A DNA stretch of 17,081 bases from an uncultured bacterium (GTDB lineage: Bacteria; Cyanobacteriota; Cyanobacteriia; Cyanobacteriales; Microcoleaceae): positions 37,339 through 54,419 of the forward strand of contig CAZSTZ010000002.1 of assembly GCA_964609515.1 (NCBI GenBank). Reading direction: 5' to 3'. Shown one piece after another: positions 2,287 to 16,892 of the stretch (the stretch's first letter is position 1; every line of letters begins with the position of its first letter). The notes under the pieces are model-generated. The model was not told where the DNA came from. It made no database searches and saw only the letters and a program-made list of their open reading frames with translations. Made by a program: the position numbers and the translations under genes.

Positions 2287-2331
2287 TGCTAATTGCTAAC
2301 TTACAATTAACAATTAACAATTAGCAATTAA
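2287..2331. repeat. Heptamer tandem repeats (TAATTGC / CAATTAA, STRR-like) in the intergenic region just upstream of the minus-strand TerB-like gene
   Basis: taattgc taactta caattaa caattaa caattag caattaa read directly from the sequence. Same heptamer family as 15106-15175. Confidence 0.5.
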
Positions 2332-2774
2332 CCTTTATTCTTGATAGAAATGACATCAATAATTTTACCTGCCATTTCTTCAGAAATCTTTAAGGCTGTA
2401 TAAAGTTCGTTCAAAAGTTCCTCCTCCTCCTCTGCCAAATCTCCATCTGCTAATACCAAATCGGTAGTAACAGCAAAAACCGTCTCTTTCAAATCCTTTG
2501 GCAATGCTTTCACCGCTGCATCGAACAAAGGTTTAATATCTTTGTTCTTAATAATACCCAGCAGCTTATCTGTCATTTCTTTTAGTCCCTCTTCCGAATA
2601 CTTACTAAAAAGTTCCATGCGAGAGAAAAGAGTAGTAATAGCTTGAGATTCGCTAGTAGTAATTATGTCATCGGCAGCTACGGCAATTAAAGCGATCGCT
2701 GCAAAAGCTTCTGCTGGTTCTAGTTTAATATCGCTGGCTTGGAGTTCGCCGCTACCCTGTTGAAATAGACTCAT
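2328..2774 (-). CDS. TerB-like (tellurite-resistance TerB family) small acidic protein
   Basis: 148 aa, helical and acidic, with the pattern AAIALIAVAADDIITTSESQAI...LADGDLAEEEEELLNEL typical of TerB-domain proteins. Family assignment by recognition, not by search. Confidence 0.55.
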   Translation of the reverse strand: MSLFQQGSGELQASDIKLEPAEAFAAIALIAVAADDIITTSESQAITTLFSRMELFSKYSEEGLKEMTDKLLGIIKNKDIKPLFDAAVKALPKDLKETVFAVTTDLVLADGDLAEEEEELLNELYTALKISEEMAGKIIDVISIKNKG

Positions 2775-2845: not shown

Positions 2846-4165
2846 CTATTTCTGAGCAATTGCTAACTCGGCCCCCAGAAAGTCAACAAACTGCCGCGCC
2901 GTCCGTCCAGAACGCCCGTTATGGCGGGTGGCCCATTGCAAGGCCAAAAATTCTAAATCTTCGGCCTTGAGTTGAATATTTGCTTGTTTTGCCCGGTGGC
3001 GGACGATGTTTAAATAAGTGTTTTGGTCGGCGGGCTCGAAGGTTAAAGTTAAACCAAAGCGATCGCTAAAAGACAGCTTCTCCTGGACGGTATCCCAGCT
3101 ATGAACCTCATCGCCATCCTTGGGACGAGGCCGATCCTCAAAGAACTCTCGGACCAAATGTCGCCGGTTCGACGTAGCATAAACTACCACATTTTCGGGA
3201 CGAGCGATGGCGCTACCTTCTAAAATCGCCTTGAGTGCCTTAAAAGCGTCGTTATCCTCCTCAAAAGAAAGGTCATCCACAAAGATAATAAATTTCTGGG
3301 GCACACCTCGCAACCTCTCCACGATTAAAGGCAAATCGTTTAGATCGGACTTAGCAACTTCAATTAAACGCAAGTTCCGTTCTTGATATTGATTTAACAA
3401 GGCCTTAACTAAAGAAGATTTACCGCTGCCGCGACTGCCATAAAGAATGACATGGAGGGCGGGATAACCTGCTAGGAGGAACTCGGTATTTTTGATTAAA
3501 GTTTCTTTCTGGGACTCGTATCCTACCAATTCCGATAATTCGACGGAATCTGGATCGGAGATACCGACTAACTGGCCCCCCCGCCACTGCATGGCTGGAT
3601 ATCGGGCAAACAAACCGGTCCCAAATTGACGATAGTAATTGCCCAAGTCCTCCACGGCCTCGCCCCAGTCGCCAAGCTGCCGCAATTTGTCCCAGATAGA
3701 CTTTTTGCCGGGGGGCATTTCAGGTTCGGCCCCTCCATGCCAAACCACGGGGGCTTCTTTTAATTGGCCTGCCACCCGCAGCCAACTGCCCAACCGGTCT
3801 TCGCTGCATTGGTAAATAATTTGTAGCCCCTGGAGGTCGTGTTTTGCCGCTGCCACCAAAGCAGGGGGCAATTTGGCAAAGTCGGTTTGTTGGGCCTGTC
3901 GGCTAAAGGGGTTTTCATCGGCGAGAATTTGACCGATTAAGTAATTTTGCCAGTCGGTATTTTCGGCAGCAATGGCTTTAAACCATCCACCGTAGGCCTT
4001 GAGAGATTTCATGCCGGTGATGTCGTTATGGCGGAGAGATTGTAGCAGGTCGAGAAAGGTTTGACCCACCGAGTTTTCTAGAACCGATTGATAGAGCAAG
4101 AGGGATGCTGCTTGTCGTTCTATGGTTTTGATTTGAGCGATCGCTTGAGAGTTTAAATAGGACAT
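2846..4165 (-). CDS. DUF815-family AAA-type ATP-binding protein
   Basis: Walker A ILYGSRGSGKSSLVKAL and Walker B IIFVDDLSFEE. The ORF extends to 4207, but the internal ATG at 4163-4165 (MSYLNSQAIAQ...) is the more likely start. Conserved single-domain ATPase, usually annotated as ATP-binding protein (DUF815). Confidence 0.75.
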   Translation of the reverse strand: MSYLNSQAIAQIKTIERQAASLLLYQSVLENSVGQTFLDLLQSLRHNDITGMKSLKAYGGWFKAIAAENTDWQNYLIGQILADENPFSRQAQQTDFAKLPPALVAAAKHDLQGLQIIYQCSEDRLGSWLRVAGQLKEAPVVWHGGAEPEMPPGKKSIWDKLRQLGDWGEAVEDLGNYYRQFGTGLFARYPAMQWRGGQLVGISDPDSVELSELVGYESQKETLIKNTEFLLAGYPALHVILYGSRGSGKSSLVKALLNQYQERNLRLIEVAKSDLNDLPLIVERLRGVPQKFIIFVDDLSFEEDNDAFKALKAILEGSAIARPENVVVYATSNRRHLVREFFEDRPRPKDGDEVHSWDTVQEKLSFSDRFGLTLTFEPADQNTYLNIVRHRAKQANIQLKAEDLEFLALQWATRHNGRSGRTARQFVDFLGAELAIAQK

Positions 4166-4249
4166 CTTGCCATCTTTCTTTATAAAAGAACGCCCCCATC
4201 TTCTCAAATTTTTAGCTCTTTTTTATGTTAAGTTTTGATAATTGGATAA

Positions 4250-6868: not shown

Positions 6869-6900
6869 TAAGCGATCGCCTGATAGAGTTAGTAGTTAGT

Positions 6901-6922
6901 AGGGTGCGCACCGCGCACCAAA
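6901..6922. repeat. GC-rich palindrome / tandem heptamer AGGGTGCGCACCGCGCACCAAA upstream of Uma2 copy A. Repeated at 8750-8771 upstream of copy B; degenerate copies lie downstream of each gene at 7626-7640 and 9424-9438.
   Basis: GGTGCGC and GCGCACC are reverse complements, and GCGCACC is tandemly duplicated. It stands out in an AT-rich intergenic context. Confidence 0.5.
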
Positions 6923-6945
6923 TAAATTTTTGTTAAAATAATATC

Positions 6946-6980
6946 AACCCGGTTTTTTTGAAAAACCGGGTTTCTGGGCT
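6946..6980. repeat. Palindromic hairpin repeat CCCGGTTTTTTT-G-AAAAACCGGG followed by TTTCTGGGCT (same family as 4250-4313)
   Basis: Inverted repeat and shared TTTCTGGGCT tail read directly from the sequence. Confidence 0.5.
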
Positions 6981-7000
6981 AAAGACGTAGGGAAAAAACC

Positions 7001-7621
7001 ATGACTCAAGCAATAGAAAAACCCCAACTAATGACTCTAGACGAATTTCTGGACTGGTATCCAGACGACGGGAAAATTTACGAACTACATAAAGGAGTTA
7101 TTTTTGAAATGGAACCAACTGGAACTCACCAACAAGTTATTGGTTTTCTTGTAACTAAATTTGCCGTGCAACTTGAAAATCTCCAACTTGCATACTTGCT
7201 AGTAACTCAATGCATCATCAAATCAATTAGCACGGACAATTCTGGATTCAATCCCGACGTAACAATTCTCGATAAAAACGTTTTAGAAAACGAGCCGATG
7301 TGGAAAAAACGTTCCACAATTACCAACGGAGAAACTGTCAAGTTAGCCCTTGAAGTTGTCAGCACTAATTGGCAGCATGATTATTTAATGAAACTGTTTG
7401 AATATGAAAATCTAGGAATTTATGAATATTGGATAGTTGACTATTTAGGATTAGGTGGAAGGCGATTTATTGGCAGTCCCAAACAGCCGACTATTTTTGT
7501 TTATGTAATGGTGGATGGCGAATATGAAGTAAAAACGTTTCGAGGTAGCGACAGAATCGAATCATCAATTTTTCCCGAATTAAATTTAACGGCGGAACAA
7601 ATATTTGCAGCAGGTAGTTAA
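7001..7621 (+). CDS. Uma2-family (DUF820) restriction-endonuclease-fold protein, copy A
   Basis: 206 aa. Hallmarks of cyanobacterial Uma2/DUF820 proteins: N-terminal MTLDEFLDWYPDDG...YELHKGVI, and the PD-(D/E)xK-like core NPDVTILDK...LALEVVS. Nearly identical over its 5' about 140 bp and its 3' about 415 bp to copy B at 8798-9418. Confidence 0.85.
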   Translation: MTQAIEKPQLMTLDEFLDWYPDDGKIYELHKGVIFEMEPTGTHQQVIGFLVTKFAVQLENLQLAYLLVTQCIIKSISTDNSGFNPDVTILDKNVLENEPMWKKRSTITNGETVKLALEVVSTNWQHDYLMKLFEYENLGIYEYWIVDYLGLGGRRFIGSPKQPTIFVYVMVDGEYEVKTFRGSDRIESSIFPELNLTAEQIFAAGS

Positions 7622-7675
7622 AACGTAGCACCGCGCACCAGTATAATTATTGAAGGAAAAAAAGTAGAGAATAGA

Positions 7676-8122
7676 ATGAGTCAGTCGCAGTTATTACTGC
7701 CACCCTGGAGAAGTCCAAATTTAGGAATGGGTCGGATATTTAGCCATTTTACTAACTCTGAGGGAGCTACTGGAATTACAGGAATTATTGGGGATAGTCT
7801 CGATATAAATCAGCAGGCGATCGCCACTAAACTGCAATTCGGACAAGGTTCAAATCCCTTTTATGCTAACGCTTCAGGAGATATATTTGTAACAGAACTT
7901 GACGTGGAAGCAACTGTAGGTGATTTGAATTTAATTGGTGTCTTTGGCGACAAGCAAATGTTTCTAATTCAATTCTCAGAAGAAACTGCTTTAGTCTTAA
8001 ATAAGATTAGAGTCAGACCGGTGAAAATCTCTTATAATGTATTGACATCGGGCAGCAGTATTTACACTATCCCTGGTGGCACTACGCTCGTAGGTAAATT
8101 TCTCGTAACGAGGGTTAGATAA
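7676..8122 (+). CDS. Hypothetical protein (148 aa, Gly/Ser/Thr-rich, predicted beta-rich), first gene of a two-gene cassette
   Basis: ORF of 148 aa with no family I can recognise. Its stop overlaps the start of the next gene (TAATG at 8119-8124). Sits between the two Uma2 copies. Confidence 0.5.
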   Translation: MSQSQLLLPPWRSPNLGMGRIFSHFTNSEGATGITGIIGDSLDINQQAIATKLQFGQGSNPFYANASGDIFVTELDVEATVGDLNLIGVFGDKQMFLIQFSEETALVLNKIRVRPVKISYNVLTSGSSIYTIPGGTTLVGKFLVTRVR

Positions 8123-8739
8123 TGAATAAATTAGACCTTTATCAAACTGTCGAAAATTTAGAGTCTGGCGAACTAGAAAAACAAGTTTGTGCGCTAGAAG
8201 GCGCAGTAGAAATAGTTAACTTACTCGCCTTTAAAACTGTTGAAACATTCGAGAAAGCTTCCCACAAATTTCCCATCGCCGATCGCCTTTATCGCTTTGG
8301 TTCGATTATGGTACCCCACCTAGAACAATTGCTCGAAAAAACAGAAGATTTAGAAACCCAAATTCTAGCAGCAGTCGTACTGTTAAGATTGGGTTCCCAG
8401 GTAGGAGTTGATGTTTTATTAAATGCCATCTCCCGCGACAAACAATATCCCTGTTTGGCAGCAAGCTGTTTGGCAGCAGCGGGCATTAAAATAGCAATTA
8501 ATCCTATAAGCGATCGCCTCAGAAACGCCAGTTTTGAAGAGATAGATTTAATCGTCGGTTTGCTAACTGCTTTGGAAGAATTAAACGGCGAAATACCTCC
8601 CGATATCTATCGACTTTTTACAGTTGCCGATGCCCCGTGGCAAATTAAAGCTATAATTCAAGATAGGGAATTAAGCGGCGATCGAAAGTTAGTTTTAGAC
8701 AGCTTTACGTCTAACTATGTTAGGGAGATTAACTATTAA
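8122..8739 (+). CDS. Hypothetical alpha-helical protein with HEAT/ARM-like repeats (205 aa), second gene of the cassette
   Basis: Repeated helical hairpin pattern (AAVVLLRLGSQVGVDVLLNAISRD...CLAASCLAAAGIKIAINPISDRL) resembles HEAT-like repeats. Translationally coupled to the upstream ORF. Confidence 0.5.
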   Translation: MNKLDLYQTVENLESGELEKQVCALEGAVEIVNLLAFKTVETFEKASHKFPIADRLYRFGSIMVPHLEQLLEKTEDLETQILAAVVLLRLGSQVGVDVLLNAISRDKQYPCLAASCLAAAGIKIAINPISDRLRNASFEEIDLIVGLLTALEELNGEIPPDIYRLFTVADAPWQIKAIIQDRELSGDRKLVLDSFTSNYVREINY

Positions 8740-8797
8740 CTGTCCTAGTAGGGTGCGCACCGCGCACCAAAAAAATATTTAAAAAAAGGAAAAAACC

Positions 8798-9418
8798 ATG
8801 ACTCAAGCAATAGAAAAACCCCAACTAATGACCCTAGACGAATTTCTAGCCTGGTATCCAGAAGACGGGAAAATTTACGAACTACATAAAGGAGTTATTT
8901 TTGAAATGCAACCCACAGGCACTCACCAACAAATTGCTGGCGAACTTTCTGGGGAATTGTTCTTAGAAATTCGGCGCTTACATCTTCCTTACACTATTCC
9001 CAGTCAATGCATCGTTAAGTCAATTAATACAGACAATTCTGGATTCAATCCCGACGTAACAATTCTCGATAAAAACGCTTTAGAAAACGAGCCGATGTGG
9101 AAAAAACGTTCCACAATTACCAACGGAGAAACTGTCAAGTTAGCCCTTGAAGTTGTCAGCACTAATTGGCAGCATGATTATTTAATGAAACTGTTTGAAT
9201 ATGAAAATCTAGGAATTTATGAATATTGGATAGTTGACTATTTAGGATTAGGTGGAAGGCGATTTATTGGCAGTCCCAAACAGCCGACTATTTTTGTTTA
9301 TGTAATGGTGGATGGCGAATATGAAGTAAAAACGTTTCGAGGTAGCGACAGAATCGAATCATCAATTTTTCCCGAATTAAATTTAACGGCGGAACAAATA
9401 TTTGCAGCAGGTAGTTAA
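8798..9418 (+). CDS. Uma2-family (DUF820) restriction-endonuclease-fold protein, copy B (mosaic paralog of copy A)
   Basis: 206 aa. Identical to copy A at residues 1-40 (a few substitutions) and at residues 80-206. Residues 41-79 are divergent (IAGELSGELFLEIRRLHLPYTIPS versus VIGFLVTKFAVQLENLQLAYLLVT). Confidence 0.85.
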   Translation: MTQAIEKPQLMTLDEFLAWYPEDGKIYELHKGVIFEMQPTGTHQQIAGELSGELFLEIRRLHLPYTIPSQCIVKSINTDNSGFNPDVTILDKNALENEPMWKKRSTITNGETVKLALEVVSTNWQHDYLMKLFEYENLGIYEYWIVDYLGLGGRRFIGSPKQPTIFVYVMVDGEYEVKTFRGSDRIESSIFPELNLTAEQIFAAGS

Positions 9419-9448
9419 AACGTAGCACCGCGCACCAGTATAATTATC
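9032..9448 (+). repeat. Direct repeat of about 415 bp, nearly identical to 7235-7650 (1 substitution, 1 single-nucleotide indel). It covers the 3' two-thirds of the Uma2 gene plus a 27-bp downstream tail.
   Basis: Base-by-base comparison of the two segments within the window. Confidence 0.9.
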
Positions 9449-9698: not shown

Positions 9699-12413
9699 CT
9701 ACTCATCCTCCCCAGGATTAGGATTAATCAAACCTTTCGCAGTGCCAAACAAATTAATCGGACTCTTGCCATCAGTAATCAACACGCTTTCAATACCCAG
9801 CCCCTCCAACAGTCGCGCCTGCATTTCTGGGCCGGCTTGAGCGATCGCCCTGATAGTATCCGCCCCCAAAGCCTGAACCTTCTCCCGAAACTCCGCCGCA
9901 TTCATCCCCGCCAGACGCCTCGCCTTCTCCAACTCCAAACTATCGAAAGCCTGCTTGCGCTCAATCTCCGCCTCCTGACGCGCCCTGATAATAGCCGACT
10001 CCGCCTCAAAACGGATCCGCGCCGCCTCCGCTTCCTGCTGGGCTAACATAATCGTCGCCTCCCCGCGAATTCTCGCCGTTTCTGCCTTCGCCCTCGAATC
10101 CGCGTTCGCCCTTCCAGTAGCTTCAATAGCCGCATTTTCAGCCTGCAACTCCAGTAAACTTCTGCGTTCCGTTTCTGCCGCGCTTTCATCGACAATTCCC
10201 TGCCTTTCCAAACGCGCTTTTGCCTCCTGTTCGATCCGTTTGGCATCGTTTCTGGCAGCCGCTTCTTGAGCGTCGGTGGTAATCTTTATCGCCAACTGTA
10301 CCGATTTTTGCAAGCTCTTTAAAGTCTCCTCGTCAACCGGTTCCACCGACTGAATATCGACGTTAGTAATTACCAGATTGTTAGTTCGGAAGCGAAACTC
10401 CTCCCGCAGATTTCCCCCTTCATCCAACCCGAACACCGCCTCCCGAATAATCTGCGCCGACTGGCGGTGGAACTGCTCGAAACTGACACCGGCAACAGTC
10501 CCCCGAACTTGAGAAGCGATCGCCTTGCAAGCAGTATTGACAAAATCGGGAACCTGAAACAACTTCGCCGCTTCCTCTTGGCTGTTCTTGTCAACATCAA
10601 AATACCAATTATAAGACAACCGCAACTGCAACCGGGCGTGGTCTAAAGTTTCCACCGCAAACATATCCGTCATAAAATCCGGCCCCAACAGCAAAGCCAA
10701 AGACTTAATAACGTGAGGTCTTTTCGGCACCGAACCCGACAAACTCAACACCGTCACTTCCTCTTCCGGTCCTAACATTACCAAATCTGGACCGAAGACA
10801 ACGCGAGCAGTTCTCTCTTTGTAGTTATGAACCTGCACCGCCCCATTTTGGGGAACCTGGAAAACAACCGCCCTAGTTTTATCCCGCTGGTTTGCCGGGC
10901 CCCCGTAGGGATTGCCATGCCCCCCTCGGTAGCGCCCCCTGTCCGCCAAGGGGTCGATTTTTTTCATCAATATTTCTTCAACCGCCGGCGGAATTTCCTT
11001 TTCCCAAAGTTCCTGGTAAGGAGTTAATAAATATGCTTGCGGTCCGCGAATTAAACTTAGTTCTCCCGTCTGGATGTTGCGCACATAAATTCCCTCGTTT
11101 TGGTCTAAAGGAATCGCTTCGCGTTTTTCCACAACCTCCACTTCCAACGGAGGCACATAATCCCGAGGACCGTAAATCGTCCACAAATCCCCCGGTTGTC
11201 GTCGCACAGCGTTAGTACCCTCGCCCTCGGTAAACCGTTCCGTTGCCCGCAGCAACAGAGCTTCGCGCTCTCCCAGAACGTAAACATCTCGAATGCCTGT
11301 TTGGTAGTTATACTCGGGTTCTAAATCTAAACCTAGCTCTAGTTCTTGGAATACATCGTCAAAGGTTTCGCTATTTTCTTCGCTACCCTCGATATACTCT
11401 CCCGGATGCAAGAAAAAGGAAGTGCGACCTTGACGAATTTCTCGCCTGCCCAATTGGGGTTTGCCGTTGTCATCCACCGGGTTAACGATAACGCACCATT
11501 GGCGATCGCTTAAAGTAACTACTCCCACTTCGCCGATGACTTCTTCATAAACATCGGGTATGTGAGTTTCCGCATCTTCGTAAGTTACCAACCACTCGTC
11601 TCCCGCCTTGCGATACCGACCGAATATATCCGTAAAAGTTCGCCTCGCCTGTAAATGTAATGCTTTTTGTTCCGTTAAAACGTAAGCTTCTACTACTACT
11701 CCCACTTCTTCTTCCACGCCCGGCAAATAGGCCCCCACTTCTCTTACCAACCATTCCTCGCCAGCGATGCGAGGGTTGCCCTGGCGGTCTATACAGTCTC
11801 GCCGCGCCTGCAAGCATAACGCCTGGTTCGGTTTGATAATCGTCGCGTTTACTACTTGTACTACTTCAACTTCAATTCGAGGAATATAAGTTCCCGGACC
11901 CTCAAACAGCCATTCGTCTCCCGCCAAACGTTCCATAGGTTCGGCTTCCGTTGCCGTAGTTTCTGTAGCGAGGGGTGCCGTCGTCGTTCTAGTGGTTTCT
12001 GTAAAATCGCGAATCGCCCTCAAACGGAGAGCTTGATTTCTTTTTACAACCTGTAGCTCTTTAATATCTCCTAATAGTTCTTCCCCGGGATATAGTGGGA
12101 AAGGTTCTTGCTCGAAACGATATTCGCGATCGCCATAATGCAACCTCACCTGACCGTAAGCGTCCGCCAGCGGTTCTCCCCGACTGTCGCGCATCACTGG
12201 GTTAGCAATTAAACAATAATGCCTCGGCGGCACTATTATCATCTGTTGGGGTGCTAAAACTAGACGTTCGCCCTGACCTAAAGTTACCGTCCGCGGACCT
12301 ACTTCTAGTCTGGTGACTCCACTATTATTATCTAAAATGTGGATATACTGTTGGGGTTTGAGTCTAATTACTCCCCCAGTTTCTAATGATTCCTGAGTTT
12401 GACCTTTATTCAT
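9699..12413 (-). CDS. MVP: Major vault protein (MVP) homolog, full length (904 aa from the ATG at 12411-12413)
   Basis: Very strong similarity to eukaryotic MVP along its whole length. N-terminus IRLKPQQYIHILDNNSGVTRLEVGPRTV...MIIVPPRHYCLIANPV versus human [28 protein letters not shown]...MVTVPPRHYCTVANPV. Repeat domains GDEWLFEGPGTYIPRIEVEVV, GEEWLVREVGAYLP and GDEWLVTYEDAETHIPDVYEEV. Shoulder region RAVVFQVPQNGAVQVHNYKERTARVVFGPDLVMLGPEE...TVLSLSGSVPKRPH...LLLGPDF, and the cap-helix coiled coil. The track ORF starts at 12464, but the ATG at 12413 is preceded by GAGGAGGTG 7 nt upstream, a strong SD. The stop is at 9699-9701. Confidence 0.95.
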   Translation of the reverse strand: MNKGQTQESLETGGVIRLKPQQYIHILDNNSGVTRLEVGPRTVTLGQGERLVLAPQQMIIVPPRHYCLIANPVMRDSRGEPLADAYGQVRLHYGDREYRFEQEPFPLYPGEELLGDIKELQVVKRNQALRLRAIRDFTETTRTTTAPLATETTATEAEPMERLAGDEWLFEGPGTYIPRIEVEVVQVVNATIIKPNQALCLQARRDCIDRQGNPRIAGEEWLVREVGAYLPGVEEEVGVVVEAYVLTEQKALHLQARRTFTDIFGRYRKAGDEWLVTYEDAETHIPDVYEEVIGEVGVVTLSDRQWCVIVNPVDDNGKPQLGRREIRQGRTSFFLHPGEYIEGSEENSETFDDVFQELELGLDLEPEYNYQTGIRDVYVLGEREALLLRATERFTEGEGTNAVRRQPGDLWTIYGPRDYVPPLEVEVVEKREAIPLDQNEGIYVRNIQTGELSLIRGPQAYLLTPYQELWEKEIPPAVEEILMKKIDPLADRGRYRGGHGNPYGGPANQRDKTRAVVFQVPQNGAVQVHNYKERTARVVFGPDLVMLGPEEEVTVLSLSGSVPKRPHVIKSLALLLGPDFMTDMFAVETLDHARLQLRLSYNWYFDVDKNSQEEAAKLFQVPDFVNTACKAIASQVRGTVAGVSFEQFHRQSAQIIREAVFGLDEGGNLREEFRFRTNNLVITNVDIQSVEPVDEETLKSLQKSVQLAIKITTDAQEAAARNDAKRIEQEAKARLERQGIVDESAAETERRSLLELQAENAAIEATGRANADSRAKAETARIRGEATIMLAQQEAEAARIRFEAESAIIRARQEAEIERKQAFDSLELEKARRLAGMNAAEFREKVQALGADTIRAIAQAGPEMQARLLEGLGIESVLITDGKSPINLFGTAKGLINPNPGEDE

Positions 12414-12545
12414 ACCGCACCTCCTCAAATAATTAATAATTAACAATTGCTCTTTTCTCAGCAATAATTCATCTGCTACGTCTGTTGCAAAATTTGCTGT
12501 TAACTAAGCTTTTTATCGCGCTCCGCGATTACTACGAACAATTCA

Positions 12546-15083
12546 TTACTGCCTCCACAACTTAATAGTATTGTCTTTGCTGCCGCTGGCAATAGTCTTA
12601 CCATCGGGACTAAAAGCAACGGTATAAACCTCATCAGTATGTCCCTCTAAGGTACTAAATAACTCCCCAGTTTCTAAATCCCAAATTTTCACCGTATTGT
12701 CCTTGCTGCCGCTAGCAATAAACTTACCATCCGGGCTAATATCCACGTCAATAATATCATTAGAATGCCCTTCTAAAGTATTAATTAATTCTCCAGTTTC
12801 TAAATCCCAAATTTTAAGAGTATCGTCATAACTGCCGCTGACTAATTTAGTAGAGTCGGGACTAATAGCTAAAGTTCTAACGCCTTCAGTATGACCTGCC
12901 AAAGAATGAATTAAACCCCCCGTTTGTAAATTAACAACTTTAATAGTAGTATCCTCGCTGCCCGTGGCAAAAGTTTCACCGTCAGGAGCGATCGCCACCG
13001 CATAAATAATATTAAAATGATAGAAAAGATTGTAAATAAGAAAACCCGTATCCGTATCCCAAATTCTAACTACGGTATCCCCGCTACCGGTAATAGCTGT
13101 TCTGCCATCAGGACTAACAGCAACGGACCAAACGGGACCGTAATGGTCTAAAGAATACAAAAACTGTTCTGTTTCTAAATCCCAAATAAGTAGCCGCCAA
13201 TCGTAAGTAGCGGCAGCCAGTTTTTGCCCGTTATTAACATTAACATCAAAAGACCAAATAGGAGAACCATCGCCAAAAAAAGTTTTGCTAGATTCGCCGA
13301 TGGGCAATTCTAAAACTTCAAGAGAATTATTTTCACCGTTGCTAATAATTAATTCACCTTGAGGACTAAAAACAACATTTCTGACTATGCCATAATTGTC
13401 GCTTAAGTCTTCAACAGTGGCATTTTTCCAATTAAGAGCCTCTTGGCACTCTTGCAAGACGTTTTGACTTTCAGCAAATTTACTCGAAGATTCGGGGACT
13501 TCTGCCGCTTCTTCGATGCAGCGATCGTAATTTCTATTCTGATAAAAACCATCAATTGTAGCAAATTCTCTCGCCTCTCGTGCTAACAGTTCTTCTCGTT
13601 GTTTTTCTAACCTTACTCTTTCCTGTAAATTTTGCCATTGAATGTAAAGATAAAGAGCAGCTATTAAAGCTAAAATTCCCGTAATGCTAACTCCCAACAA
13701 CCACCATTCTAAAGAACGTTTTTTTCTACTTCTTCGCTGCCGGAGTGTTTGAGAATTATTAGAATTATTAGAATTATTAGAATTATTAATCGCTGCCGGT
13801 TGCGACTTTAACCTCATCGTCGCTGCTTCCCGCTCTCTGGCACTAGGTAAGTTATAAATAAACTGAGATTCCTGCAAATCTTGAAGAAACTTCTTCAACT
13901 TTATAGAGAAAGATTTAGGCGCCAATCGTTCTTCAATTAAAGCGCTATCTTCATCGGAAACTCCGAGAACTTGCTGCAAGCGAATTAACTCTTCCCGAGT
14001 TTCTTTAGTAAAAGGATATCCATTATTCATCTCCTTTAATAAAGCTTGTTCGTATCGTTCCCCCTTTTCTCGATATTTTCGGTAAGGATTTAAAATCTCA
14101 TCTTCGATCGCCTCCGTCTCTTCTATGTCTATTTCTAAACTATCTCGTAATGCGTCTAAAATTTCTCTACCCACCACAGAAATATCTCCCCGGTGACTCG
14201 AAAGACGCACTACTTCTTGTCGATAGGTCATTTTTTTATCTATCGCTAATTGGGGAGACTCTTTTAATTTTTTTAGCTCCGCTAAGACTTCGGCAGCAGA
14301 CTGGTAGCGATCGTGGTAATCGTAGCAAACCATCTTATCTAAAATCTCTGCAAACCCCGGAGAACATACCGCTAAATGACGCCAAACAATCTCTCGTTTG
14401 TGCCCTTTTTTATAATCTTTTAGTTTTGATAATTCCTCCGGCGGCAAACCCGTTAATGCCTGAATGCCAATCATCCCCAAAGCATAAATATCGCTGTTTA
14501 ACTGGGGATTGTATTCAAACTGTTCGATCGGCATATATTCAATAGTGCCAATTCTCACCGTTCGCGGACTTTGACCTTGACGACCGTTCAGTTCTTTAAC
14601 CGCACCAAAATCGATTAAAACTAACTTGTCATCCGTATCCCGTCTGATTAAATTGCTTGGCTTAATATCTCGATGAATTACCCCATTTCCGTGAACGAAA
14701 ACTAAAATTTCTAAAACCTCGTTGAAAATCTCAATTACTTGGTCTTCCGACAGCGGTTTACCTGCTATTATCTCCTTTTCTAATGGGGTTCCCGTCACAT
14801 AAGATTCAACTAAGAAAAATTCTTTATTTTCTTCAAAATAAGCGTAAAGTCTAGGGATTTGATTGTGTTGAGAAAGCTTTTCTAAAGTCTGGGCTTCTTG
14901 TTGAAATCGACGTCTAATAATCTCAATTAAACGCGGGTCGAAATTTCCCGGTTGTAAGTGTTTTACAAAACAGCGCGGTTCTCCAGGCCGACGAGTATCT
15001 TTAGCCAGATAAGTTCTGCCAAATTCGGCTGATTCTATGACTTCAAGGATTTGATAACGTCCGTCTAAAAGTCTGCTAACCAT
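12546..15083 (-). CDS. Receptor-like Ser/Thr protein kinase: N-terminal Hanks-type kinase domain, a single TM helix, a coiled coil, and a C-terminal WD40 beta-propeller (about 7 repeats)
   Basis: 845 aa. Kinase motifs GRTYLAKD...VKHL, HRDIKPSNLI and DFGAVK. A basic stretch RRSRKKRS precedes the TM segment LEWWLLGVSITGILALIAALYLYI. C-terminal repeats of ...GH...VxxVAxSPDGxxxASGSxDxTIKxWDLETG... (WD40). Same strand as MVP and immediately upstream of it. Confidence 0.9.
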   Translation of the reverse strand: MVSRLLDGRYQILEVIESAEFGRTYLAKDTRRPGEPRCFVKHLQPGNFDPRLIEIIRRRFQQEAQTLEKLSQHNQIPRLYAYFEENKEFFLVESYVTGTPLEKEIIAGKPLSEDQVIEIFNEVLEILVFVHGNGVIHRDIKPSNLIRRDTDDKLVLIDFGAVKELNGRQGQSPRTVRIGTIEYMPIEQFEYNPQLNSDIYALGMIGIQALTGLPPEELSKLKDYKKGHKREIVWRHLAVCSPGFAEILDKMVCYDYHDRYQSAAEVLAELKKLKESPQLAIDKKMTYRQEVVRLSSHRGDISVVGREILDALRDSLEIDIEETEAIEDEILNPYRKYREKGERYEQALLKEMNNGYPFTKETREELIRLQQVLGVSDEDSALIEERLAPKSFSIKLKKFLQDLQESQFIYNLPSAREREAATMRLKSQPAAINNSNNSNNSNNSQTLRQRRSRKKRSLEWWLLGVSITGILALIAALYLYIQWQNLQERVRLEKQREELLAREAREFATIDGFYQNRNYDRCIEEAAEVPESSSKFAESQNVLQECQEALNWKNATVEDLSDNYGIVRNVVFSPQGELIISNGENNSLEVLELPIGESSKTFFGDGSPIWSFDVNVNNGQKLAAATYDWRLLIWDLETEQFLYSLDHYGPVWSVAVSPDGRTAITGSGDTVVRIWDTDTGFLIYNLFYHFNIIYAVAIAPDGETFATGSEDTTIKVVNLQTGGLIHSLAGHTEGVRTLAISPDSTKLVSGSYDDTLKIWDLETGELINTLEGHSNDIIDVDISPDGKFIASGSKDNTVKIWDLETGELFSTLEGHTDEVYTVAFSPDGKTIASGSKDNTIKLWRQ
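13752..13787. repeat. 9-bp in-frame microsatellite (AGAATTATT)x4 inside the kinase gene. It encodes (NNS)4 just N-terminal to the TM segment.
   Basis: Four perfect tandem 9-mers read directly from the sequence. The protein shows NNSNNSNNSNNS. Confidence 0.85.
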
Positions 15084-15790: not shown

Positions 15791-16892
15791 GCGACCGATT
15801 ACGGCTAAACTTCCATAGTCAATATACTTGAAAGGCGGCGAAGTTTGATTTTTAAGTCGGTTTTTGATGACCTTGGCCCCATAAGACCCCTCCTCCATGG
15901 CTACGGGGGCCACTCCTGGTAGGGGCTTTTCTTCTTGGTGGGGATAATTTGCTAAATCTCGCAAAAATCTTCGCGTGGCCCGGTACGCTCAAGTCCTTTT
16001 CTACCACAACTCGTCCGGCCCGGTCGAGGCTGGCCCCCGTCTTACGAGCGATCGCCTCTCCCATCCCCGATGCCTTCACCCCGGCGGCCCACAATACCGT
16101 CTCAGCCTCTATTTCCTCGGTTTCGTCCCCACTCCGGACTGTCACTTTACCATCTTCTATATTTGTCACCAGACTTTTAGTCCGTATCGTTACTCCCAAA
16201 TTTGTCAAAGCTGCTGCTGCTTTTGCCGATAATTCTGGTGGGAAAGGTGGCAAAATTCTGTCCACTCCTTCTATTAAAAAAACGCGGGTCTCGCTAGTAT
16301 CAAAATTCCTAAAATCTGGCTTAAATTTCTTATAAGCTAACTCTGCTAAAGCCCCCGCTAATTCCACTCCCGTCGGTCCGCCGCCCACGATAACAAATGT
16401 TAGCAAAGCCCGTCTTTTCTGGGGGTCGCTTTCTTTCTCCGCTTCTTCAAAAGCTCCTAATATTCGCCTCCGCATTTCCAAAGCATCTTCTACTGTTTTT
16501 AACGGCGGCGCTTTTTCTTGCCATTCGTCGCGACCGAAGTAAAAATCTTTGACTCCCGTAGCTACAATTAAACTGTCGTAAGTTAGGTCGCGATCGCGCC
16601 AAATTAACTTATTTTCTTCGGGCTGAATATCTATCGCTTCCCCTAACAAAACTGTGGTATTTTTATTACCTTTTAAAACTCCCCGCAGGGGCGAAGCAAT
16701 ATCTCCTGGAGACAAACTACCCGTCGTCACTTGGTAGAGCAAAGGTTGAAATAAATGGAAGTTTCTTTTATCAATTAAAGTAACTTTTACATCGGCTTTT
16801 CCTAATTCTTTCGCCGCATATAGTCCGCCAAATCCGCCGCCGACTATTACTACATGATGGGGTGTTTTTTTAGGGTTTTCTTCGGTTTTCAT
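15764..16892 (-). pseudogene. ndh: Type II NADH dehydrogenase (NDH-2, FAD-dependent pyridine nucleotide-disulfide oxidoreductase), apparently disrupted. A frameshift near 15965-15980 (about 5 bp missing at ...IFA|IGDLANYP...) splits it into ORFs 15852-16892 and 15764-15964. The C-terminal membrane-anchor region after GRNQAV is absent.
   Basis: N-terminus HHVVIVGGGFGGLYAAKEL (first FAD-binding GxGxxG) and a second GxGxxG motif VIVGGGPTGVELAGALAE. The expected IFAIGDLANYP becomes IFARFSKLS..., with DLANYPHQ...LPGVAPVAMEEGSYGAKVI...PFKYIDYGSLAVIGRNQAV continuing in the -1 frame. A stop follows directly after GRNQAVSTPL. Confidence 0.55.

Follow-up and report, generated by a model that had tools for sequence, protein, structure and literature searches.

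The locus described here raises the question whether two small overlapping genes, carried between two copies of a Uma2 nuclease gene in an uncultured cyanobacterium of the Microcoleaceae, form a functional module and, if so, of what kind. The genes, here called A and B, lie in a stretch of 17,081 nucleotides (nt) of contig CAZSTZ010000002.1 (assembly GCA_964609515.1, positions 37,339 to 54,419 of the forward strand), which is referred to below as the window and whose own coordinates are used. A previous reading of this stretch, made from its letters alone (the sequence-only reading), had guessed at a toxin-antitoxin (TA) or defence-type unit. The guess is supported by the present analysis, as A has its homologs among the toxin domains at the C-terminus of Rhs proteins and B is homologous to the gene that directly follows those toxins. 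The pair is very probably a free-standing toxin-immunity cassette of the polymorphic-toxin type, with an A protein of ADP-ribosyltransferase (ART) fold and a HEAT-like B protein, which persists as a TA-like module.

The gene pair and its conserved linkage

The open reading frames (ORFs) of A and B (Table 1) overlap by a single nucleotide in TAATG, the sequence across the junction being GAGGGTTAGATAATGAAT, and the two genes are predicted from this arrangement to be translationally coupled. The overlap, from which the sequence-only reading had proposed an operon, is conserved in 12 other independent loci, in which A is followed by B with a 4-nt overlap in the form ATGA. Comparison with the closest ortholog pair (locus L003) gave ratios of nonsynonymous to synonymous substitution rates (dN/dS) of 0.17 for A and 0.24 for B; these ratios, and the retention of the overlap elsewhere, indicate that both are real genes under purifying selection. 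Word-indexed searches recovered homologs of A (about 22 clusters) and of B (11 clusters), all of cyanobacterial or metagenomic origin and all annotated as 'hypothetical', and the homologs of the two genes share the same small contigs. A promoter-like site, a consensus match only, precedes the start of gene A by 29 nt and falls within the 3' flank of the first Uma2 repeat unit; since the same element recurs after the second Uma2 copy (9415-9444), it belongs to the Uma2 repeat.

The linkage of the two genes was examined in 13 loci from species-representative genomes of Oscillatoriales, Nostocales, a Gloeobacteraceae metagenome-assembled genome (MAG) and one member of the Capsulimonadaceae, collected with a query alignment (A1) that reaches only standalone copies of the cyanobacterial type. 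A is directly followed by B in all 13, with a stop/start overlap of ATGA or TAATG wherever both genes are intact. The same partner accompanies the domain when it is fused to larger proteins: in each of the three Rhs toxins examined that carry the A domain (L027, 1680 aa with RHS and PT-HINT domains; L028, 1150 aa; L029, 2454 aa), the stop codon is overlapped by a B homolog of 174-184 aa, identified by hmmsearch (E-values 8e-24, 6e-32 and 8e-24, respectively) and by hhalign (98.1% over 142 columns). A fourth contig (P0034) has a 180-aa gene with a faint HEAT_2 match in the immunity position. Pairwise divergences of A and B are strongly correlated over 16 pairs (Mantel r 0.91, none of 5000 permutations reaching as high a value), with B diverging faster than A, so that the A domain has the downstream, co-varying gene expected of Rhs-type polymorphic toxins. 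Adjacency, overlap and co-divergence in both the fused and the free forms identify B as the cognate downstream partner of the A domain. Its placement and behaviour are those of an immunity protein, and B is most likely the cognate immunity protein or antitoxin of A.

The L029 locus (11067-14167) also carries, beyond the Rhs toxin and its B-like gene, a small pair of 265 and 140 aa followed by a 232-aa protein with an SMI1_KNR4/SUKH protein, an arrangement often seen where orphan toxin-immunity cassettes form an array, with an ISL3 transposase upstream.

The toxin-domain family of gene A and the predicted structures

A profile search of 1.84e9 representative proteins yielded 142 relatives of A. 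Of the 89 matches spanning the full domain, 87 have it at the extreme C-terminus, with no residue after it, in proteins that range from about 130 to 2454 aa. Pfam analysis of the 83 longer relatives detected RHS_repeat in 16 and PT-HINT in five, as well as RHS, DUF6531 and SpvB/TcdB domains, and 41 of 58 N-terminal regions fell into one BLAST cluster. The motif that ends the Rhs core, YDPxxGRF(L/I)xxDP, stands just ahead of the domain even in the short relatives that appear to lack other domains (five read by eye). Taken together, the C-terminal position, the associated Rhs and PT-HINT domains and the core-end motif characterise it as a C-terminal domain of polymorphic toxins in the sense of Zhang et al. 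2012 (PMC3482391). This Rhs-type architecture is displayed by the homologs, whereas the window protein consists of the domain alone (148 aa), and neither the window protein nor the 13 standalone loci show an N-terminal trafficking or secretion domain or linkage to a secretion system.

The composition of A (Gly 10.8%, Ser 8.8%, Thr 8.1%; isoelectric point (pI) 6.6) roughly agrees with the Gly/Thr/Ser-rich character noted earlier, and its product is predicted to be a cytoplasmic protein of about 16 kDa. AlphaFold2 models were obtained for both proteins, structure prediction having been proposed with the sequence-only reading as a check, and gave an ART-like alpha+beta structure for A and an all-helical one for B. 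The A model, built on an alignment of 22 sequences, is confident (predicted local distance difference test (pLDDT) 80.6, predicted template modelling score 0.78) and has six main strands, so that the description of A as beta-rich did not hold in its pure form. The short, variable N-terminus is modelled with low confidence and has no hydrophobic signal segment. The highest-ranked structural neighbours of the model are Agrobacterium 6b (score 6.7; 101 residues, 2.6 A), Tpt1/KptA (6.2 and 6.1), OspC3 and CopC (6.0 and 5.8), AvrPphF (5.6), the Rhs toxin TreTu (5.1) and DarT (5.0), followed at lower ranks by Tne2, TreX, RES toxins, diphtheria toxin, poly(ADP-ribose) polymerases (PARPs) and the C3, iota and pertussis toxins. 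All of these are ART-fold proteins, and the model itself contains the split beta-sheet alpha+beta core; A is thus assigned the ART fold on the strength of its predicted structure.

Conservation of individual residues, counted over 67 members of the A family, is concentrated in a few motifs. The HFT motif at the end of the first predicted strand is almost invariant (H24 in 66/67, F or Y at position 25 in 67/67, T26 in 66/67). ART motif 1, a His or Arg ending strand 1 and in contact with NAD+, is represented by H24, which is a candidate NAD+-binding His, its structural equivalence being presumed. Toxicity of Tre23, an ART-HYD1 toxin, needs His8 (PMC8661411). The Tox-ART-HYD1 model begins to align at LYHYT, the equivalent of the His motif of the A family. 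The second candidate, IFVT[ED] (T73 in 67/67, F71 in 60/67, E or D at position 74 in 59/67, comprising 31 E and 28 D, with E or D-like residues throughout), is probably the aromatic-strand motif, by analogy with the YSTD of diphtheria toxin and the YFAD of PARP. ART motif 2 is a Tyr or Phe on a strand, stacking on nicotinamide, and motif 3 a catalytic Glu, Asp or Gln on a late strand; candidate residues for the two are F71-V-T73-[ED]74, F55, F62, [FY]96 and E103 or E102. Other conserved polar positions are N60 (59/67), [KR]93 (64/67), Q94 (56/67), S101 (58/67), E103 (48/67) and [RK]146 (65/67). There is no sign that the window copy is inactivated, since it keeps all of the polar residues conserved across the family.

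At the thresholds of Pfam, NCBIfam and PADLOC, neither protein belongs to a family that can be named, as the sequence-only reading had stated, and A has no credible match in any of the three. DUF3947 was considered for A and rejected as a chance match, since it reached 15.6 bits (E 0.02) where the cutoff is 25. The nearest named relative of A is Tox-ART-HYD1 (PF15633), which is matched weakly by 12 of the 67 family members (best E 0.0033), no other family being matched by more than two. The sub-threshold scores and the different immunity family place the A family outside Tox-ART-HYD1, to which sequence comparison suggests that it is distantly related, as a sister or outlier.

The earlier description of B as an acidic, all-helical, HEAT-like protein proved correct. 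The protein is acidic (pI 4.7; 31 Asp and Glu against 20 Lys and Arg), and its model (pLDDT 81) consists of ten stacked helices and a disordered tail. A profile of the B family matches alphaRep/HEAT-like chains (E 1.9e-7), and Foldseek relates the model to alphaRep proteins and the phycocyanin lyase CpcE/F with probability 1.0 and template modelling (TM) scores of 0.5-0.69; B thus has the alpha-solenoid of HEAT or PBS-lyase HEAT-like repeats. In a single-sequence Pfam search, HEAT_2 stays below threshold (14.8 against 27.7 bits). Neither Pfam nor the model shows a macrodomain, an ADP-ribosylglycohydrolase, a helix-turn-helix (HTH) or the usual autoregulatory DNA-binding domain in B.

Genomic context of the pair

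Table 1. Coordinates of the gene pair, its sequence elements and the flanking Uma2 units in the window
Feature	Position	Strand	Details
Uma2 copy 1 unit	6897..7650	+	gene 7001..7621; PF05685 E 1.9e-28; 12-mers at 6908 and 7628
Promoter-like site	7618..7647	+	TTAAAA-18-TATAAT; consensus scan, 10/12 match
Gene A	7676..8122	+	148 aa, ATG start; ORF list
HFT motif codons (H24-F25-T26)	7745..7753	+	end of predicted strand 1 (model strand 21-26)
IFVT[ED] codons (I70-F71-V72-T73-E74)	7886..7897	+	model strand 70-73; candidate second ART motif
Gene B Shine-Dalgarno and stop/start overlap	8110..8124	+	GAGGG 8110-8114; TAATG 8120-8124 (gene A TAA 8120-8122, gene B ATG 8122-8124); sequence
Gene B	8122..8739	+	205 aa, ATG start; ORF list
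Uma2 copy 2 unit	8746..9447	+	gene 8798..9418; PF05685 E ~2e-28; 12-mers at 8757 and 9425

The genomic neighbourhoods of the homologs, to which the sequence-only reading had pointed as a further check, are variable: no neighbour is conserved across the standalone loci, and several of the contexts are TA or restriction-modification (R-M) islands. Loci L005-L009 lie in an island with NACHT, PemK, SbcC-like, Phd or PIN, BanI R-M and Uma2 genes; L003 adjoins the conflict-system genes PDDEXK_2 and DO-GTPase; L010 has a DUF7380/EMARD protein; and L015 has two VapBC-like PIN pairs with an AAA_21/AAA_15 ATPase. Other copies adjoin Mur ligase, MgtE-like, oxidoreductase/ABC and ATP-synthase genes (L023, L025, L017 and L021). 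In the Gloeobacteraceae MAG (L024, 4107-9321 of JANNOF010000007.1) the pair interrupts the potassium-transport ATPase operon, lying on the same strand between kdpA (601 aa) and kdpB (690 aa). Some copies are decayed, with A gone and B split (L013), B split (L009) or fragments only (L026). Neither the 17-kb window nor any of the 13 genome loci, inspected with 6-kb flanks, contains an Rhs, CdiA or PT-HINT gene, and no conserved secretion, adaptor, VgrG/PAAR or injection-system genes adjoin the pair in any locus.

The guanine-plus-cytosine (GC) content of the pair (0.40) is close to that of the whole window (0.43), and HIP1 sites occur within both genes, which indicates long residence in cyanobacteria. 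The pair is an autonomous, scattered and occasionally decaying two-gene unit, partly located in TA or defence islands, a pattern known from TA-like selfish modules. Features of type II TA systems seen here are the compact operon, the coupling, the variable context and the decayed copies, the toxicity and its neutralisation being predicted; the DNA-binding domain usual in their antitoxins is absent from B.

In L017 (5581-7509 of CAITND010000194.1, an uncultured member of the Oscillatoriales), B and a C-5 cytosine DNA methyltransferase are joined in one ORF of 642 aa, which is either a real fusion of immunity protein and methylase or the result of a deletion joining B to a neighbouring R-M methylase such as those of L005 and L009.

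That the pair is carried between Uma2 repeats is evident from the two PF05685 genes on either side of it. The use of this nuclease-flanked and potentially mobile context as a ground for the TA or defence idea finds no support, as Uma2 directly flanks the pair in this genome only, being at least 3 kb away or absent at the other loci. The flanking is therefore local history and not part of the module. Uma2 was also considered as a functional partner of the pair and rejected, direct adjacency being confined to the window. The two copies are direct repeats spaced 1797 nt apart and are mosaic: the 3' portion of about 450 nt is identical, the 5' portion of about 140 nt is about 93% identical, and a block of about 70 nt between them (~7140-7210 against 8937-9007, encoding residues ~47-70) is wholly diverged. 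This pattern would fit gene conversion or a targeted variable segment better than a simple duplication. Uma2 paralogs are numerous in cyanobacteria, and the flanks most likely arose among them, through duplication or through gene conversion. Each of the four edges of the two Uma2 units bears the 12-mer GCACCGCGCACC, which has no other occurrence in the window (four in all, against 0.03 expected). The upstream version of this 12-mer lies within a small hairpin (GGTGCGC-ACC-GCGCACC) and the downstream version carries a TATAAT box.

Identical repeats of this length would allow deletion of the pair by homologous recombination. The deleted or ancestral allele with a single Uma2 was not found, as every contig with an identical EamA neighbour ends about 465 nt inside the first Uma2 copy, where the identical repeat starts; two junction patterns for such an allele, scanned in metagenome contigs, gave no matches for either.

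Other genes of the window include a homolog of the Major Vault Protein (9699..12464, minus strand), directly to the right of the second Uma2 copy, which is full-length (921 aa) and matches the Pfam Vault repeats (E 1.9e-67), MVP_shoulder (5.4e-51) and Vault_2/3/4 models; bacterial homologs of this protein are uncommon. An NDH-2-like Pyr_redox_2 oxidoreductase (15852..16892, minus strand) ends in about 35 residues (ARFSKLSPPRRKAPTRSGPRSHGGGVLWGQGHQKPT) that look out of frame, which could reflect a frameshift or pseudogene, or a sequencing error near 15.9 kb. A DUF815 AAA ATPase of 453 aa (2846..4207, minus strand) is followed by a TerB-like protein of 148 aa (2328..2774, minus strand) and a peptidoglycan-binding protein, and this block is kept in metagenome contigs carrying an identical EamA gene.

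Interpretation and comparison with known systems

In the proposed mechanism, A would bind NAD+ through the cleft formed by H24 and T73 and would ADP-ribosylate an essential target, or deplete or hydrolyse NAD+, so that growth stops; the trigger would be the loss or titration of B. Translational coupling implies that B is made together with A, and B would bind A stoichiometrically (1:1) and block the NAD+/substrate cleft, as Tri23 and TriTu do. Since B has no hydrolase-like domain, neutralisation should proceed by binding and not by reversal of the modification. It is rather unlikely that A is an NAD+ glycohydrolase that depletes NAD+ in the manner of Tne2, RES and TNT and not a transferase; the toxin-immunity pair would otherwise be the same. 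In the absence of an Rhs shell, a trafficking domain and conserved neighbours, the cyanobacterial copies of A cannot be delivered to other cells, and the free pair would therefore act in cis as an addiction or abortive-infection-type module. TA-like selfish or defence behaviour is most likely, because the pair sits in TA and R-M islands and, once, between kdpA and kdpB.

Several observations weigh against the assignment as an ART toxin with its immunity protein. The window protein has no match to Tox-ART-HYD1 at E <= 10, and the best family member reaches 18.5 bits against a cutoff of 25. Foldseek comparison of the A model with the PDB returned noise only, tankyrase appearing at ranks 41-45 with TM scores of 0.33-0.35, and sequence and profile searches of the PDB with alignments A1 and A5 and the most HYD1-like family member matched no solved structure and found no ART structure. 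A strictly conserved catalytic Glu or Asp on a late strand is not obvious, the candidates being [ED]74 (59/67) and E103 (48/67). PADLOC gave no match and hence no evidence of a recognised defence system; in PADLOC-DB v2, A has no match and B has only an 11.4-bit partial match to a generic HEAT-ARM model. The toxicity of A and the binding of B to it are matters of inference.

Among the alternatives, the pair may be an orphan or displaced cassette that does not act autonomously but forms a silent reserve for recombination with a full-length gene, of an Rhs or other polymorphic toxin, located elsewhere in the genome. Polymorphic toxins do diversify by recombination with standalone toxin cassettes (PMC3482391), A retains the Gly-rich linker found ahead of the domain in the fused toxins (NLGMG-RIF), and the Rhs gene of L029 is followed by extra cassette arrays. 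This explanation is nevertheless unlikely. Rhs, CdiA and PT-HINT genes are lacking around the free copies, as noted above; the ORF of A is intact and under purifying selection, begins with its own ATG and is preceded by a plausible promoter; and no part of the Rhs core is present in A to act as a handle for recombination. The fused relatives examined are, in addition, of high GC content (0.59-0.69) compared with the standalone loci (0.37-0.51, save the Capsulimonadaceae locus at 0.635).

Small standalone effectors with a downstream immunity gene exist for type VI secretion systems (T6SS) and contractile injection systems, Tre1-Tri1 being named in this connection, and A might likewise be an exported effector, loaded non-covalently on a secretion or injection machine and used as an inter-bacterial weapon from which B protects the producer. 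The absence of conserved secretion, adaptor, VgrG/PAAR or injection genes beside the pair and the nature of its N-terminus, described above, make this highly improbable. An even more remote and disfavoured explanation is that A is a housekeeping RNA 2'-phosphotransferase of the Tpt1/KptA kind, or another benign NAD-dependent enzyme, and B an unrelated scaffold. The family is tiny, given its 142 members in the whole search, and patchy, has no Pfam PTS_2-RNA match and is found at the tip of Rhs toxins; the same co-diverging partner always follows, and its location differs from genome to genome, with copies that decay. A tentative extension of the cassette explanation, which at present must be regarded as doubtful, is that the pair is a new TA or abortive-infection system of filamentous cyanobacteria, domesticated from an Rhs tip. 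Loss of B, or its titration (by a phage product, for instance), would then free the toxin to ADP-ribosylate a target in nucleic acid or in translation. If true, the pair would represent a defence family that is ART-based but separate from DarTG, and B a new immunity fold for toxins of the ART type.

Among the closest known systems is Tre23-Tri23, in which the C-terminal ART-HYD1 toxin of a Photorhabdus laumondii Rhs protein modifies 23S rRNA (PMC8661411). Members of the A family are likewise small ART-fold toxin domains, presumably of H-Y-[EDQ] type, that stand at the C-terminus of Rhs proteins with the predicted immunity gene directly downstream. In both Tre23-Tri23 and TreTu-TriTu, an Rhs ART toxin is neutralised when the downstream immunity protein binds to it (PMC8661411, PMC9825190); Tri23 acts by complex formation and not by reversal, and the same is proposed for B. 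The two families share a conserved N-terminal His motif, which reads LYHYT in Tre23-type toxins and RIFSHFTN in A. Unlike Tox-ART-HYD1, the A family has about 16 extra residues between this motif and the later ones. The immunity proteins of Tox-ART-HYD1 are Imm-My6CBD (PMC3482391) or Tri23-like, whereas the partner of A is HEAT-like in all loci and is neither of these, and the window copy stands alone without an Rhs shell, PAAR or T6SS. TreTu-TriTu, with the C-terminal ART toxin of Salmonella Rhs1 (PDB 7ZHL/7ZHM; PMC9825190), and TreX-TriX (PDB 8S2M) have no detectable sequence similarity to A, and TriTu forms a beta-sheet lid, in contrast to the all-helical solenoid of B. Targets of the characterised structural and sequence neighbours of A include 23S rRNA, EF-Tu, single-stranded DNA and caspases.

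As a free pair, A and B would work similarly to the ART-fold TA systems DarTG, ParST and RES-Xre, to which neither PADLOC nor Pfam shows a match. The antitoxins differ, DarG being a macrodomain hydrolase and ParS and Xre being HTH proteins, with neither kind of domain present in B, and the relatives of A are secreted Rhs toxins, unlike the toxins of these three systems. The general understanding of such systems is unchanged by the pair, which belongs to a kind of module already known. It does provide a concrete, testable function for two genes called 'hypothetical' in every public source, and the persistence of an Rhs toxin tip as a free two-gene module in cyanobacteria is useful for genome annotation and for searches for NAD+-dependent toxins and their targets. 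A counterpart to B is Imm-HEAT, a HEAT-repeat protein encoded directly after polymorphic toxins and proposed to confer immunity (Zhang et al. 2012, PMC3482391); it is likened to B by description, and was reported with Tox-REase-7 and Ntox34 toxins, not with ART toxins. The combination of an ART toxin with HEAT-repeat immunity is absent from that reference survey, and what is new here is an ART toxin family outside the Pfam, NCBIfam and PADLOC models, with an immunity partner of the HEAT type and a free-standing cyanobacterial form.

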